Positions 32,680-42,468 are shown, counted from the first letter of the stretch. The stretch: 64,000 nt of DNA from Promethearchaeota archaeon (GCA_019058445.1 JAHPZA010000006.1:320001-384000); one strand, 5' to 3'. The notes: generated by a model not told the origin, from the sequence alone. A program made the numbers and translations.

Positions 32680-33781
32680 TTATATTTATTATATCAATAA
32701 TTTTTTTAATTTTATTTGATCTAAATTCGGTTTTATTGATAAATTTATCATAAATAGGAAATCTTTCTTTTAATGTGTAACCATTTATTTCACAGATTTT
32801 TTTTAGATACGTTATTTGAGGCCATGGCTTTTTAGGATTAATAAAATCTTTTGTAATTGGCGAGATACCCCCAAAATCATCAATCCCAATGTTAATAAAG
32901 TCTTTTTCATAACCAGCAATTAAATTTGGAGGAATCTGAATATGAATCTCATTTTCAAATATAATTTTGGCAATCCCAGCAATTTTAACTATTTCTTCTA
33001 TTGATATCGGTTTTTTTGGATGATATGAAATTCCTTCCTTATATATAAAATTTTGAATTATAACTTCTTGTATATGCCCATACTCTTCTTGAATGGTCTT
33101 TATTAAATATAAATCCTTAATTCTATCTTCAAGAGATTCTCCTATTCCTAATAATAATCCTGTTGTAAAGGGAATTTTCAACTTTCCTGCATCTTTAATA
33201 TGTCTAATTCTTTTTTCGGGCAATTTTCCCGGAGAGAATTCATGAACTCCACCTTTATCAAATAATCGCATACTAGTACTTTCTAACATCAATCCCATAC
33301 TAGCATTATATTTTTTTAATCGTTTTAGTTCGTCATATGTCAGTTCTCCTATATTAGTATGAGGTAATAAATTAAAATCCAATAAATACGAACAAATATC
33401 AATAACAAATTGTATAAAATCATCACAATCTCTATTTTTTAATTCTACCTCTACCTCTTGAAAGATTTCAGGTCGTTCTCCTGACATTAATAATGCTTCT
33501 TTACAGTTATATTGAATTGCTTTCTGCACTAAAGCAACAATTTCTTCATTACTAATTAATACAACGTTCCCTTCGCCGTTGATTTTAGGAACTTTATAAT
33601 TATAAAAGCAATATCCACATTGATTCTGGCAATAATTTGACAATGATATTGTGAAATTTTTAGAATATGTGATGACATTTCGCTGTTCTTGAGGGAGTTG
33701 AGCTTTAATTTCTCTTGTTTTTTGTTTTAGATCTTTGATTGTCAAATTCTTTAAATATTCGATTTTCTTAGAATCAACCAT
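32657..33781 (-). CDS. cofG: FO synthase subunit 1
   Basis: ITYSKN, CQNQCGYC, LPHTNIG, ASMGLMLE, IPFTTGLLLGIGE, QIPPNL, GGISP. Confidence 0.95.
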   Translation of the reverse strand: MVDSKKIEYLKNLTIKDLKQKTREIKAQLPQEQRNVITYSKNFTISLSNYCQNQCGYCFYNYKVPKINGEGNVVLISNEEIVALVQKAIQYNCKEALLMSGERPEIFQEVEVELKNRDCDDFIQFVIDICSYLLDFNLLPHTNIGELTYDELKRLKKYNASMGLMLESTSMRLFDKGGVHEFSPGKLPEKRIRHIKDAGKLKIPFTTGLLLGIGESLEDRIKDLYLIKTIQEEYGHIQEVIIQNFIYKEGISYHPKKPISIEEIVKIAGIAKIIFENEIHIQIPPNLIAGYEKDFINIGIDDFGGISPITKDFINPKKPWPQITYLKKICEINGYTLKERFPIYDKFINKTEFRSNKIKKIIDIININDNRTDI

Positions 33782-34449
33782 TAATTTCTCCTTATATAAA
33801 TTAAATTTACATAATTATCTCTTTTGTAAACTTTGAGTAATTTAAATTTTCTCCCCTGCTCCATTTTATTAAAACCCTCCCCTTCTACTAAACTAGTAGC
33901 ATCTCTCCCACCTATAATCCATGGTGCAATAGTTATTCTCATCTCGTCTATTAAATCTTGTTTGATAAAACTCCAATTTAAATTGCCCCCACCTTCTAAT
34001 AAAATTGATTTTATTCCCATGTTTGATAGTATTAATAAAAGATTTAATAAATCTACTCTCTTTCCGGTCCCTGATTTTATTATTTTCACGTTTTTAGATT
34101 CGAATTCTCTAATTCTGTCCATAGTCACGCTTTCTGTCGTACCTATTATCGTAGGATAAATTTGTGGTTGATAAGTAATTACGTTTGAATCTAGTGGAAT
34201 TGTTAAAGTGCTATCAACAACAACTCTGTAATATCCTTTATGCTTAAAATATTTAATATGCAACTTTGGATTGTCTTTTAAGATTGTCCCCTTACCCACC
34301 ATAATCGCATCGACAGTTGTACGCAATTTATGAACATCTTTCCAATCTTTCTCATCAGATAATTCAGGATCTCCTGTTCTTGAAGCAATTTTTCCATCAA
34401 TAGTCATTGCGGCACTTAAAATAACATAAGGTTTTAGAATTTTCATCAA
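33781..34449 (-). CDS. ribD: 2,5-diamino-6-ribosylamino-4(3H)-pyrimidinone 5'-phosphate reductase (archaeal RibD-C/ArfC)
   Basis: PYVILSAAMTIDGKIA, DAIMVG.GT...DNP.L, LLEGGG, DE..ITIAP.IIGG. Confidence 0.92.
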   Translation of the reverse strand: MMKILKPYVILSAAMTIDGKIASRTGDPELSDEKDWKDVHKLRTTVDAIMVGKGTILKDNPKLHIKYFKHKGYYRVVVDSTLTIPLDSNVITYQPQIYPTIIGTTESVTMDRIREFESKNVKIIKSGTGKRVDLLNLLLILSNMGIKSILLEGGGNLNWSFIKQDLIDEMRITIAPWIIGGRDATSLVEGEGFNKMEQGRKFKLLKVYKRDNYVNLIYIRRN

Positions 34450-34534
34450 ATATGTTCTCAGTTGATATTAGATATTCTTTATCTTTTTATTTCAAAAAGA
34501 ATATAAATATAAAAATATAATACATTTAAGTTAA

Positions 34535-40313: not shown

Positions 40314-41825
40314 TTAAAATCTCGCATCAATCTTAAATGGAACGACATCACAAGTCTCATGATACCATGTGAGTAGCCTTTCTTTTAAGCTGAAAAGAAT
40401 CTCTGCATAAGCGGGGTCATCTATTACATTAGTTAATTCAGATGAATCTTTATTTAAATCATATAACTCATCCTTCTCATAAAGACGTCGAACATATTTA
40501 TAATCTTGTGTTCTACACATAACTGCTTTACCATGATAAGGTTCCTCATCAATGAGTTGAAGCCTAACACGGGGCCAATAAACTCCACCTTCTATCTTAG
40601 CCTCTATTTCCGTGGCCTGTTTTTCCCCATAAAGGCGGCCTCCTTCACAAAATACCGCATCTCTATGTAATTCAGTTTCACCTTTCAACAATGGAATTAA
40701 GCTCTTACCAAAATGAGTATAACCTGGTTCTATACCCGTGAGTTCATATACTGTTGCAGAAAAATCAACTAATTCAACTAATGCATTACTCACTCGTGGC
40801 TTTACTGGAATATTTTTAGGTGGTTTCACGATTAACGGAACATTTGAAAGACAATCTTCAAAGGTATTTTGATTTTTTTCAACTATTCCATAATCACCTG
40901 TGAAATCACCATGATCAGAAAAGAAGAATATAGCGCTATCATTATAAATCCCTGCCTTTTTTAATTCTTCTATTACTAATCCAAATTGATGATCCAGGCG
41001 AGTACACATTCCATAATAGGTAGCACGTAGCTCATTCCAGCGTTCCTCTGTCCATCCCTGAAGATTTTGGTGCTCATAAATGCCTTTTAAAATAGAGGGT
41101 TTATCGTCCCAATTTTGTGGGGCAGGGATTCGGGGCGGAAGAGTTTTACGATTTATTTTACTAAACCATGGTTCTTCAACCCCATAAGGTGGATGTGGAT
41201 ATGAAAGTGCAAGATCAATGCAAAGAGGCTTATCTCCTTTATAATTTCGAATAAAATCAATTGCTCCTAAAACCATTGCCCAATCAAAATCAAAATAGAT
41301 ATCATCTCCCATTGTATCTAGCTTACCGGCATAAAGGCTATAATAATTATCGCCATCTGTTTTTCCTCTCCACTCCTCCTTCCTAAAATCATGTAGACTT
41401 GGTTTCCAATTATGACCCCATCGTGTAAGATCCTTTGAGGATGGCCAATATTGTACATCACAAACCTTTTTTGAATTCTTTCTTGCCGGAATGAGATCGT
41501 TTCTAAAACTCCACCATACGAAATATCCATTATCTTTAAGTATTTTTAATAAATTAGGTTCACCATGTTCATGATGTAACATATGAGACATTGTCCTGTG
41601 CCCTCTCACATGTGGATACCATCCTGTCATGAAGCTGCATCGGCTGGGCGTACACACAGGATTCTGACAGAAGGTATTGCTAAAAGATACGGAATTTGTA
41701 TTAATTAATTGATCAAGATGAGGAGTTTCTGCTGCGGGATTTCCTAAATGCCCTAAAACATCTCCTCGCCATTGATCTGGATTAAAAATGATAATATGTG
41801 GTTTTTCACTCATAATCTTATTCAT
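40314..41825 (-). CDS. Cys-type sulfatase
   Basis: PDQWR.D, CTPSRCSFMTG, PHPPY, SDHGD. Confidence 0.92.
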   Translation of the reverse strand: MNKIMSEKPHIIIFNPDQWRGDVLGHLGNPAAETPHLDQLINTNSVSFSNTFCQNPVCTPSRCSFMTGWYPHVRGHRTMSHMLHHEHGEPNLLKILKDNGYFVWWSFRNDLIPARKNSKKVCDVQYWPSSKDLTRWGHNWKPSLHDFRKEEWRGKTDGDNYYSLYAGKLDTMGDDIYFDFDWAMVLGAIDFIRNYKGDKPLCIDLALSYPHPPYGVEEPWFSKINRKTLPPRIPAPQNWDDKPSILKGIYEHQNLQGWTEERWNELRATYYGMCTRLDHQFGLVIEELKKAGIYNDSAIFFFSDHGDFTGDYGIVEKNQNTFEDCLSNVPLIVKPPKNIPVKPRVSNALVELVDFSATVYELTGIEPGYTHFGKSLIPLLKGETELHRDAVFCEGGRLYGEKQATEIEAKIEGGVYWPRVRLQLIDEEPYHGKAVMCRTQDYKYVRRLYEKDELYDLNKDSSELTNVIDDPAYAEILFSLKERLLTWYHETCDVVPFKIDARF

Positions 41826-42357
41826 TTATGATTTCTTCTAAATAAACTTGTTAATTTACTTATTTTTATATATTTAAAATTTATGAAAACTCTCATATTA
41901 TTAAAACTCTTAATTAATGAGAATAATGTTAAGAATAAAAGATATTTTTTAAATATTTCCGTAAATGGGAGGTTATTTTTTAAATAAATTTATTTTTTTA
42001 CCCGTAAAAAATTACGGTAATAAAATTCATGAATTAGATTTTATTATATAATATTGTTCATAATATCCTACTTCGTAAAATATGTTTCGATTACTAATTG
42101 TTATAATATTAGTTAAAGCAAATTAATACTATTTTTTTTATAATTTTATATTTTTATAGACCTAATTGTTTCAATTGGTTTTAAATTTCCTCTACTTTAT
42201 CCGTTTAAGTAGATTGCGATTATTCAAAACTTATTTACTTAGGAGGAATAAAAATTATTTCTGTTTCATTTTGCAATATGATTTTAAACAAATTTTGATC
42301 AGAAAAAATTTAAAAATTTGTCTACAATTTTTAAGAATATTCAGTATAATAATACAT

Positions 42358-42468
42358 ATGCAAATAGTTTTTAAAATTGAGAGCTGTGAATCTATTCATC
42401 ATCATGATGTCTATGCTGAATTAAGTACTACAATAGGAGAGCTAAAAAAAAAATTAAAACTAATTTAA
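42358..42468 (+). pseudogene. mptA: 3' remnant of mptA
   Basis: FKIESCESIHHHDVYAELSTTIG versus the mptA C-terminus FKIESYESIHPHNVYAELTTTLG; 56/69 nt identical (42370-42438 vs 38351-38419). Confidence 0.88.

Follow-up and report, generated by a model that had tools for sequence, protein, structure and literature searches.

Two gene-end insertions with diverged terminal repeats in an Asgard cofactor gene cluster, probably of separate origin and one of homing-endonuclease type

Results

Two diverged direct repeats at the ends of arfC and mptA

The window, the whole stretch of 64,000 nt that was analyzed, belongs to an Asgard (Loki-type) archaeal genome designated G000, whose closest relative is G003. 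Its minus strand carries the working arfC gene (33781..34449), which encodes a RibD_C reductase (Pfam RibD_C, E = 3.6e-50). Upstream of it lie a gene for a 504-aa protein, termed ZnNuc (34535..36049, minus strand; Pfam DUF4379), and an amidohydrolase gene (36212..37381, minus strand; Pfam Amidohydro_1), the native upstream neighbor of arfC, with synteny in six relatives. On the plus strand, the working mptA gene (37496..38440), coding for a GTP cyclohydrolase (Pfam GCHY-1, E = 7.9e-60), is followed by a pair of minus-strand sulfatase genes (38667-40259 and 40314-41825; Pfam Sulfatase), by a plus-strand histidine phosphatase gene (42643..43185; Pfam His_Phos_1), and by the nucleotidyltransferase (NTase) gene (43331..44374, plus strand) that is the native downstream neighbor of mptA. 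A second Zn-ribbon nuclease paralog of 507 aa is located at 11967..13490 on the minus strand.

The two best direct repeats between positions 30000 and 46000 of the window coincide with the ends of the two cofactor genes. Repeat 1 (minus strand, 34377-34450 versus 36153-36226; 74 nt, 59/74 ungapped matches, 80% identity) has the sequence of arfC codons 1 to 24, and repeat 2 (plus strand, 38351-38431 versus 42370-42450; 81 nt, 79% identity) that of the final 27 or so codons of mptA. This bears out the terminal duplications of about 70 nt and about 80% identity that the initial annotation had described in both inserts, at the 5' end of arfC and the 3' end of mptA. Copy A of repeat 1 (34377..34450, minus strand) is the 5' end that came in with the insert and now serves as the working arfC start, and copy B (36153..36226, minus strand), the displaced native 5' end, runs for 24 codons before an early stop. 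Copy A of repeat 2 (38351-38431, plus strand) forms the last 81 nt of mptA, and copy B (42370..42468, plus strand), an orphaned 3' end of mptA, spans about 33 codons and terminates in frame at a stop of its own at 42468. In a whole-genome tblastn search the arfC remnant scored E = 0.004 and the mptA remnant E = 3e-5, both beyond chance, and each shares the strand of its parent gene and lies less than 4 kb from it, on the side expected. A further repeat, D1 (44793-44889 versus 45434-45530), was rejected as a remnant; it consists of two small paralogous genes.

The copies had been called synonymously diverged, a description that held only in part. Third codon positions are indeed enriched among the differences (9/15 in the arfC pair, 9/17 in the mptA pair), but synonymous and nonsynonymous codon changes are almost balanced (6 versus 6 for arfC, 8 versus 7 for mptA). 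With roughly every second differing codon altering the amino acid, the remnants are decaying pseudo-copies rather than purely synonymous recodings. The longest exact run is 11 nt in the arfC pair and 8 nt in the mptA pair; later mutation could have erased a core.

Insertions into a conserved cluster

The conserved gene order is dhps-like, cofH, cofG, arfC, and amidohydrolase, adjoined by mptA and NTase. In six relatives arfC either runs about 11 nt into the amidohydrolase gene or lies close to it, and in four relatives mptA abuts the NTase gene at a distance of 20 to 30 nt (G001, G005, and G009) or about 70 nt (G024). Because six relatives carry the cluster uninterrupted, the two gene blocks of the window are insertions. 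G000 and a JGI contig, L076, carry an insert between arfC and the amidohydrolase gene, and the site is empty, with the arfC start beside the amidohydrolase stop, in G003, G019, G005, and G001. It also appears empty in G008, on a truncated contig. The corresponding gaps in G009 and G024 are noncoding and without nuclease similarity, and a search of the 760-nt gap in G009 detected no nuclease relic. At the arfC site, a nuclease gene was absent from all six relatives examined. At the junction of mptA and NTase, both sulfatases are absent from six relatives, and tblastn (E < 1) found no mptA 3' remnant in the different inserts present at the same place in G003 (3.8 kb) and G019 (7.8 kb).

A foreign-type start on a native arfC gene

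ZnNuc is the only cargo of insert 1. Of the two arfC ends, the displaced one beside the amidohydrolase gene bears the closer resemblance to the sister taxon: copy B is 86% identical to the arfC start of G003 and copy A 70%. Copy B also shares its upstream context with G003 and, as in the relatives, still overlaps the amidohydrolase stop codon. Copy A is 86% identical to the arfC start of G019 and 83% to that of the nuclease-bearing contig L076, its closeness to L076 standing against only 62% for the remainder of the gene. Along arfC, identity to G003 is 71% over columns 1 to 78 and 80 to 82% past column 126. The donor-type tract continues from insert 1 into the anchor gene and ends inside it, at about nt 120, past the 74-nt repeat; the signal beyond the repeat comes from about 46 nt only (5 versus 10 mismatches). 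By these sequence comparisons, the first 75 to 120 nt or so of arfC are of foreign type, with the remainder of the gene and the remnant being native.

A sulfatase and phosphatase block behind mptA

MptA shares 92% amino acid identity with its G003 counterpart. Against G003, the working 3' end shows 88% identity and the remnant 80%, a difference that may also reflect neutral decay; with G001 the remnant shares 86%. The conserved HPHN motif now reads HHHD in the remnant, and its C-terminal tail is of the type found in the clade of G001, G005, and G009, not of that in G000 and G003. The sulfatase sulf1 is 74% identical to a paralog at C6:284378, which is the true ortholog of the relatives' copies; for sulf1 itself, no ortholog was found in the sampled relatives. 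The histidine phosphatase gene has a broken start, with a 1-nt frameshift in an A run and an RHGQT motif upstream of the called start in a frame other than that of the ATG; full-length homologs are about 199 aa long. Insert 2 holds no nuclease gene. A donor search found no cargo of this event adjoining mptA, and the nearest histidine phosphatase homologs (77 to 84%) lie on short contigs or away from mptA. Sliding identity along the NTase gene was considered as a guide to the polarity of the event and dropped: G003 was closest at every step, which was uninformative because the first half of the gene is less conserved in all relatives. In this event, the two sulfatase genes and the phosphatase gene were placed behind mptA, leaving the orphan mptA tail.

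Gene-end scars recur throughout the genome

Genome-wide, about 31 same-strand terminal remnants were counted in G000, with 27 at 3' ends and 7 at 5' ends. Left out of this count were domain-sharing paralogs (e.g., Zn-ribbon tails, C6:954 kb), two self-overlap artifacts, and one weak match about 15 kb away. Near, nongenic, same-strand matches comprised 29 C-terminal, 8 N-terminal, and 6 internal ones, and 35% of the far nongenic matches were terminal. The C-terminal remnants lay downstream in 27/29 cases and the N-terminal ones upstream in 7/8. With 57 near matches seen and about 3 expected by chance, the suggestion that the signature is general in this genome was supported. The occurrence of two scars within 9 kb, which had been taken to point to a general route, is near chance, with about 1.8 such pairs expected genome-wide. 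Empty sites in relatives were found for five further scars.

The reading of the scars as integrase free and tied to accessory cargo was supported as well. Among 20 annotated inserts, 18 carry just ordinary accessory genes or unannotated open reading frames (ORFs), and none holds an integrase, resolvase, or transposase. Of the 48 cargo ORFs, one encodes a LAGLIDADG protein of the same architecture, and the others are ordinary accessory genes. Contigs of G008 with PAS-kinase cargo (86 to 88% identity) were not used as evidence of transfer because they may stem from a co-binned closer relative.

Polarity was examined in seven cases. A foreign working end was found in two, arfC and an enoyl-coenzyme A (CoA) hydratase gene, for which the remnant is 95% identical to G003, and hence native, and the working end 88%. 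A native remnant with a foreign working end is the outcome predicted if DNA of a related lineage recombines through an anchor in the conserved gene. In three cases (mptA, an ArsR-type regulator, and C6:188874) the working end is nearer to the relatives and the remnant more diverged, and two further cases were tied. The proposal that conserved ends anchor recombination with DNA of related lineages is thus supported for arfC and the hydratase gene and not for mptA and the two other genes. Because the working end of mptA is the copy nearer to the relatives, we did not extend the claim of gene-end replacement to event 2.

The longer remnant branches of the latter three genes would also arise if both copies came from the recipient's own gene end, with the remnant decaying neutrally and the working copy conserved. 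Such insertion with long target duplication is documented in bacteria (Nobusato et al. 2000, as cited in PMC2853133), and the inserts described there resemble ours in being integrase free, a few kilobases long, and bounded by direct repeats some tens to hundreds of base pairs long, which often touch the 3' end of a gene. According to the same account, however, the two repeats there hardly differ from each other and match the empty target equally well, whereas the repeats here are about 80% identical and, in arfC, one of them is foreign and the two are unequally close to the empty target. The model fails for arfC and for the hydratase gene, whose remnants match G003 better than their working ends do. 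At least eight of the scars lose similarity no more than about 11 nt from the stop codon, a regularity that cuts staggered at random would not yield, and the remnant tail of mptA is of another clade's type. Target duplication is therefore an unlikely source of the scars.

ZnNuc resembles a site-specific homing endonuclease

ZnNuc combines three treble-clef Zn fingers (DUF4379) with a C-terminal Vsr-like nuclease domain of the EDxHD type. It matches PHROG 559, 9084, and 7140 (endonuclease, homing endonuclease, and intron-encoded nuclease) with E values down to 1e-26. The nuclease domain was not recognized by Pfam, and a sequence search of the PDB with ZnNuc returned no match, the solved I-Bth0305I included. 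A model of the domain (P0001:340-504; pLDDT, 91.6) was compared with 48,161 chains by VIA-align; the top match was I-Bth0305I (3r3p_B; Z 9.7, rmsd 2.9, 96/98 residues), followed by Vsr (1cw0; Z 9.4). Foldseek against the PDB gave weak rows only (E > 0.1), all of them PD-(D/E)xK nucleases. Residues E362, D396, H419, and D440 (E23, D57, H80, and D101 in domain numbering) are kept at 90 to 100% across 40 homologs and follow the E-D-H-D order of the EDxHD family (PMC3239194), as mapped by order and spacing rather than by residue-by-residue superposition.

The family occurs patchily, in 18/41 genomes (G000 included), at other sites. A homolog with 58% identity, P0002, lies between the amidohydrolase gene and arfC on contig L076, beside an arfC remnant of its own that ends at about nt 63. 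In G019, a paralog (45%) sits between MoxR ATPase and VWA genes, next to an 85-nt copy of the VWA gene start. No flanking gene-end remnant was found at five other loci (L077 and L079-L082), nor, in the genome-wide scan, adjoining the paralog at 11967..13490. Occupation of one and the same site in a second lineage makes ZnNuc look like a site-specific homing-endonuclease gene and lends indirect support to its predicted site-specific cleavage.

Event 1 would then be the insertion of a free-standing gene of the homing-endonuclease type about 74 nt into arfC. The element would bring its own diverged first arfC codons with their own start, so that arfC is kept whole, with its native codons 1 to 24 stranded beside the amidohydrolase gene. 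ZnNuc may cut the empty arfC allele near codons 21 to 25, the break being repaired off a nuclease-bearing allele from a related lineage, with co-conversion proceeding to about nt 120 of arfC. Working arfC and the empty alleles differ little around nt 55 to 85, so resistance to self-cutting is not evident.

Between G000 and L076, the ZnNuc-plus-arfC block has diverged as far as the amidohydrolase gene beside it, each with about 70% DNA identity. This also fits an old resident that was inherited vertically in both lineages and precisely lost elsewhere by recombination between the arfC copies, with no recent horizontal movement. We consider such a history rather improbable. It requires at least five independent precise losses, and the left junctions differ in position (nt 74 in G000, nt 63 in L076), in their unrelated spacers, and in an extra 135-aa N-terminal part of the G000 protein. 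The working 5' end groups with L076 and G019 against the rest of arfC. Moreover, the G000 remnant is specifically G003-like, with shared derived bases, and was therefore the working native start until after the genus had diversified.

Gene-end-targeting elements and action in trans

The order of gene end, insert, and repeated gene end, the 3' bias (27 versus 7), and the long exact cores of some recent pairs (e.g., 180 nt at C9:408940) resemble integrase targets, as if the scars were attL/attR-like remains of site-specific elements that have lost their integrases. This origin is very unlikely. The 4.6-Mb genome has two tyrosine recombinase (Phage_integrase) genes, eight TnpB genes, and no resolvase or other serine recombinase; no recombinase lies within or beside an insert or among the 48 cargo ORFs, the TnpB genes are likewise all outside the inserts, and many inserts are one ordinary gene. 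The window pairs have no long identical core, and the foreign tract of arfC passes the repeat boundary, which a single conservative crossover does not give. That Zn-ribbon nucleases cut conserved gene ends elsewhere and trigger other insertions in trans, as the initial annotation proposed from the two paralogs in the window (two more lie on the same contig, and a gene-end break would favor such events), is highly improbable, given that 2 nonself scars fall within 20 kb of the four nuclease loci versus 1.1 expected, that scars are spread over 7/10 contigs at unrelated genes without a common sequence, that close homologs are each tied to one specific site, and that ZnNuc is itself the cargo of event 1 and apparently of the homing type.

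Discussion

Asgard archaea have large genomes with an abundance of accessory and transferred genes, and few integrases or classical mobile elements explain this. A recurrent, datable scar that marks the place of entry and the direction of foreign DNA would offer a practical means of counting and orienting Asgard gene gains. In the window, we see two separate insertions, the first probably of homing-endonuclease type and the second probably an integrase-free gene-end recombination scar, and the two need not have one common cause. Event 2 is best read as one among about 30 such scars in G000. In general, DNA of related archaea would recombine via one conserved gene, and the other side would be joined nonhomologously, within the gene end or with a piece of the donor gene end. 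Once formed, the duplicated end could act as a homology arm for further spread.

A broader reading can be offered tentatively. Asgard chromosomes may host free-standing homing endonuclease genes, of the Zn-finger/Vsr-like family and at least one LAGLIDADG type, which invade the ends of housekeeping genes via recoded replacement ends; the duplicated ends would then be portable homology arms. The arfC case adds a candidate new architecture for archaeal homing endonucleases, treble-clef Zn fingers with an EDxHD nuclease, and its target site is predictable and directly testable in vitro. It should be noted that neither the logic nor the route is new in kind: the mobile endonuclease ORFs (mORFs) of fungal mitochondria and, in bacteria, homology-facilitated illegitimate recombination (HFIR) and C-terminal displacement leave the same scar. 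The value lies in the new domain of life and the scale, not in a new principle.

According to PMC3630166, which cites Paquin et al. 1994, fungal mitochondrial mORFs carry a foreign gene end, as in Allomyces atp6 and Glomus atp6, atp9, cox2, and nad3. In these elements, as in event 1, the endonuclease gene has entered at a gene end and brought a diverged version of that end with it; the native end now lies past the insert and is nearer to the sister species than the working copy, and no integrase is involved. The LAGLIDADG case in G000 has the same layout. Unlike mORFs, event 1 affects an archaeal chromosome and replaces a 5' rather than a 3' end, and ZnNuc, of predicted activity, is a Zn-finger and Vsr-like protein rather than a LAGLIDADG or GIY-YIG enzyme and is not fused in frame to the gene. 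With the EDxHD enzyme I-Bth0305I (PMC3239194), ZnNuc shares the fold, the order of the putative catalytic residues, and the association with conserved genes; some members of that family are likewise free-standing. However, sequence identity is 17%, the DNA-binding part of ZnNuc consists of Zn fingers instead of NUMOD/HTH, and there is no intron or intein.

HFIR (PMC3240628) and C-terminal displacement, as in the T6SS effector arrays of V. cholerae (PMC5361080) and at Rhs loci, share with the Asgard scars one homologous anchor in a conserved gene, a nonhomologous join opposite, and an orphan end downstream. Those systems are bacterial and linked to natural transformation or toxin-immunity turnover, whereas the Asgard scars carry ordinary accessory genes and affect both 5' and 3' ends. 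Serial accretion at a hotspot is a further likeness: the cargo at the junction of mptA and NTase differs among G000, G003, and G019.

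Duplicated gene ends in a conserved gene cluster

The two best direct repeats between positions 30000 and 46000 mark gene ends, as expected from the initial annotation, which had described duplications of about 70 nt and 80% identity. The first pair (34377-34450 and 36153-36226; 74 nt, 80% identity) corresponds to codons 1 to 24 of the RibD_C reductase gene arfC (33781-34449, minus strand). Its second copy starts with a TTG that overlaps the stop codon of the amidohydrolase gene (36212-37381, minus strand) and is ended by an early stop. Between arfC and the amidohydrolase gene lies a gene for a protein with DUF4379 zinc fingers, referred to here as ZnNuc (34535-36049, minus strand). 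The second pair (38351-38431 and 42370-42450; 81 nt, 79% identity) corresponds to the last approximately 27 codons of mptA, encoding the GCHY-1 GTP cyclohydrolase (37496-38440, plus strand), and its second copy continues in frame to its own stop at 42468. Two sulfatase genes (38667-40259 and 40314-41825, both minus strand) precede this orphan tail, and genes for a histidine phosphatase (42643-43185, plus strand) and a nucleotidyltransferase, NTase (43331-44374, plus strand), follow it; all of these genes were assigned using Pfam. The description of the repeats as synonymously diverged was only half right: third codon positions are enriched among the differences, but roughly half of the codon changes are nonsynonymous, and the conserved HPHN is replaced by HHHD in the mptA copy.

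The source genome (G000) consists of 4.6 Mb on 10 contigs, and the window represents positions 320001 to 384000 of contig 6. Its gene cluster was compared with those of six relatives, of which G003 is the closest (approximately 82 to 92% protein identity). The order dhps-like, cofH, cofG, arfC, amidohydrolase/mptA, NTase, TPR, PHP is kept in all six. In G003, G005, and G001, the amidohydrolase stop is overlapped by the arfC start by about 11 nt; mptA and the NTase gene are separated by 20 to 30 nt in G001, G005, and G009 and by about 70 nt in G024. Both the 1.7-kb block with the zinc finger protein and the 4.9-kb block comprising the sulfatases, orphan tail, and phosphatase are additions in the G000 lineage. 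The mptA/NTase junction is an insertion hotspot. In G003, it is occupied by genes for a TetR regulator, an acyl-CoA synthetase, and a membrane protein (L019:5343-8730), and in G019 by a 7.8-kb block including ubiquitin-like, E1-, E2-, and JAB-type genes (L020:1516-9244). No mptA remnant was found in either insert.

Several minor features of the cluster were also observed. The G003 amidohydrolase gene (L019:10182-11347) matches as two overlapping pieces in different frames, representing a frameshift or an assembly error. In G009, a 760-nt noncoding gap separates the amidohydrolase gene from arfC (L022:11500-12264); only about 12 nt survive of the native arfC start with its overlap, and arfC has a different start. 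This gap, in which no nuclease similarity was detectable, may be what is left of an earlier event at this position. Two small paralogous open reading frames (ORFs) (44788-44973 and 45438-45626; 61 and 62 amino acids [aa], 52% identical) lie between the NTase and TPR genes, and a third copy is located at about 691.2 kb on contig 6. G003 has a similar-sized gap at this position.

The arfC insert carries a putative homing endonuclease

ZnNuc (504 aa) has matches, at E values down to 1e-26, in PHROG families whose annotations are endonuclease, homing endonuclease, and intron-encoded nuclease, while Pfam reports three treble-clef zinc fingers and nothing else. Its C-terminal 165 residues were aligned with 39 homologues and modelled (pLDDT 91.6). 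Exhaustive structural comparison of the model returned the catalytic domain of the homing endonuclease I-Bth0305I as the top match (Z 9.7, rmsd 2.9, 96 of 98 residues), followed by the FASTKD4 RAP domain and Vsr (Z 9.4); Foldseek alone yielded only weak PD-(D/E)xK matches. Vsr-like EDxHD homing endonucleases are defined by their E-D-H-D residue order (PMC3239194), and ZnNuc has E362, D396, H419, and D440 in this same order, each 90 to 100% conserved in the alignment.

The family is patchy, being present in 18 of 41 genomes, G000 included. None of the six relatives in which the arfC site was examined has it at that site; among the 41 genomes, the best match is 45% identical. The best homologue in a wider protein collection, P0002 (58% identity), has its gene precisely at the junction of the amidohydrolase gene and arfC on L076, a JGI contig of 58.6 kb. 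L076 has its own stranded arfC start, which overlaps the stop codon of the amidohydrolase gene and extends to about nt 63, compared with nt 74 in G000; the spacers are unrelated, and P0002 lacks the 135-aa N-terminal part of the G000 protein. In G019 (contig 47, L034), the 45% paralogue is located between genes for a MoxR ATPase and a VWA protein, on the opposite strand. The promoter-proximal start of the VWA gene is repeated beside it over 85 nt at 75% identity (L034:1350-1434 and 2777-2861). A further homologue also lies on the 5' side of a VWA_CoxE gene. No gene-end remnant was seen at five other loci of the family. Recurrence at one site, separate remnants, and patchiness are what a free-standing homing endonuclease gene would be expected to show.

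The stranded copy beside the amidohydrolase gene is 86% identical to the G003 arfC start, and its upstream context is common to both genomes. The working arfC start is only 70% identical to that of G003 and 86% identical to that of G019; closest is the working start on L076 (83%), to which the remaining arfC is only 62% identical. Along the gene, G003 is closest only beyond about nt 120, and the foreign-type tract thus extends about 45 nt beyond the 74-nt repeat. The native remnant, the foreign start, and the tract past the repeat show that the native first 24 codons were displaced, and a crossover inside arfC would have joined a foreign start and the zinc finger gene to the native arfC body. 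Overall, we consider that this insert probably arose by homing endonuclease insertion. In fungal mitochondria, mORF elements likewise bring a foreign gene end with them, which displaces its native counterpart (PMC3630166). Alternatively, ZnNuc may have been inherited vertically from an old ancestor and lost precisely and repeatedly. Since G000 and L076 differ as much in the amidohydrolase gene as in the block formed by the nuclease gene and arfC (approximately 70% identity in both), this alternative was retained, although the G003-like remnant in G000 speaks against it. Neither plain target duplication, which cannot yield a foreign working start, a native remnant, and a tract past the repeat, nor a single conservative site-specific crossover can produce the observed arfC pattern.

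The mptA insert

No nuclease is present in the cargo behind mptA. Identity to G003 is 88% for the working mptA tail and 80% for the orphan tail; the latter is 86% identical to G001 and has the longer C-terminal ending typical of G001, G005, and G009. The orphan tail may be a piece of donor mptA brought in with the cargo; alternatively, a native tail of greater age may have been displaced before the G000/G003 split. The first sulfatase gene has a paralogue (74% identity) at a distance of 74 kb, and it is this paralogue to which the relatives' copies are orthologous. The inserted sulfatase gene therefore stems either from a related lineage that was not sampled or from an old duplicate. A search for a contig with the histidine phosphatase adjoining mptA found none. 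The ATG and the catalytic RHGQT motif of this phosphatase are in different frames, with an A6 run between them (42580-42645). One extra A would restore a normal N terminus (homologues have about 199 aa versus 180 here), and the gene is either a fresh pseudogene or affected by a homopolymer sequencing error.

Gene-end scars throughout the genome

The initial annotation had proposed a general, integrase-free acquisition route and a genome-wide tblastn search for terminal remnants as a check on it. All 3,774 called ORFs were searched by tblastn against the G000 genome, and short isolated hits of at least 33 bits were kept. Within 20 kb of the query, 57 nongenic hits were obtained, compared with about 3 expected from 350 far hits. 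Same-strand near hits were 29 C-terminal, 8 N-terminal, and 6 internal (86% terminal versus 35% among far hits); 27 of the 29 C-terminal copies lay downstream of the gene and 7 of the 8 N-terminal copies upstream. Removal of paralogue artifacts left about 31 scars with repeats of 59 to 343 nt, 63 to 91% identity, and inserts of 0.2 to 8 kb. In at least eight cases, similarity ends within about 11 nt of the stop codon. A very recent scar on contig 9 (L054; 408940-409175 and 409879-410114, copies 703 nt apart) has 180 nt of the gene 3' end identical through the stop codon, with similarity dropping sharply on both sides. Relatives show empty sites for five further cases. The gene-end scar is thus a real and general feature.

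The route also proved free of integrases: the genome encodes two tyrosine recombinases, no serine recombinase, and eight TnpB genes, and none of these lies inside an insert. The predicted tie to accessory cargo was borne out by the 48 ORFs annotated in 20 inserts, mostly ordinary accessory genes (TPR/SIR2 proteins, PAS kinases, TetR regulators, MFS transporters, a corrinoid protein, a Ras-like GTPase, glycosyltransferases, radical SAM enzymes, a GH15 enzyme, amidohydrolases, an LRR-TIR protein, and methyltransferases) or unknowns. The sole exception is a 691-aa LAGLIDADG_3 protein, whose gene (L068:1706-3781) is the only one inserted behind a metallo-beta-lactamase-fold gene. Next comes a repeat of about 60 C-terminal residues of the metallo-beta-lactamase-fold gene (L068:3806-4036), the same layout as in fungal mitochondrial endonuclease ORFs. 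This locus (contig 6, 704205-706536) is a second homing endonuclease-type scar.

The PAS kinase cargo of another scar is 86 to 88% identical to G008 contigs 642 and 441 (L096 and L101), and its host gene is only 73% identical to the G008 copy. This likeness reflects either recent cassette exchange or a co-binned closer relative in a 7%-contaminated bin.

Polarity of the remaining scars and proximity

Outside arfC, scar polarity is mixed. The enoyl-CoA hydratase gene resembles arfC (working end 88% and remnant 95% identical to G003), whereas the working copy is nearer the relatives for the ArsR-type regulator gene (88 to 90% versus 85% for the remnant) and the gene at C6:188874 (93% versus 85%); two further cases were tied or unresolved. 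One-sided recombination with related DNA, as initially suggested, agrees with the foreign working ends and native remnants of arfC and the hydratase gene. A single process, recombination with a relative's DNA with homology on one side only, could yield both outcomes. If the gene itself were the anchor, its working end would become foreign; if the far-side neighbor were the anchor, the donor's gene-end piece would enter as an orphan. For the ArsR and C6:188874 group, a duplicated native end that decayed neutrally would also fit. One-sided recombination is the best explanation of the scars other than that at arfC, and we rate it as even to slightly better than even. Besides the mORF elements, the nearest known counterparts are Rhs/T6SS C-terminal displacement with homology-facilitated illegitimate recombination (PMC5361080, PMC3240628) and insertion with long target duplication (PMC2853133). 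To this picture, the window adds the identity of the nuclease family, its recurrence at the same site, and the polarity seen at arfC.

For about 31 scars spread over 4.6 Mb, chance alone predicts approximately 1.8 pairs no more than 9 kb apart; the closeness of the two inserts, previously taken as suggestive, is no evidence in itself. The proposal that Zn-ribbon nucleases act in trans was not supported either. All four such loci of G000 are on contig 6, and 2 nonself scars lie within 20 kb of them, compared with 1.1 expected, giving no sign of trans action. Two scars have a TnpB-type gene directly upstream of their host gene and not within the insert (contig 9, 482662-482868; contig 10, 472026-472235), compared with about 0.5 expected.
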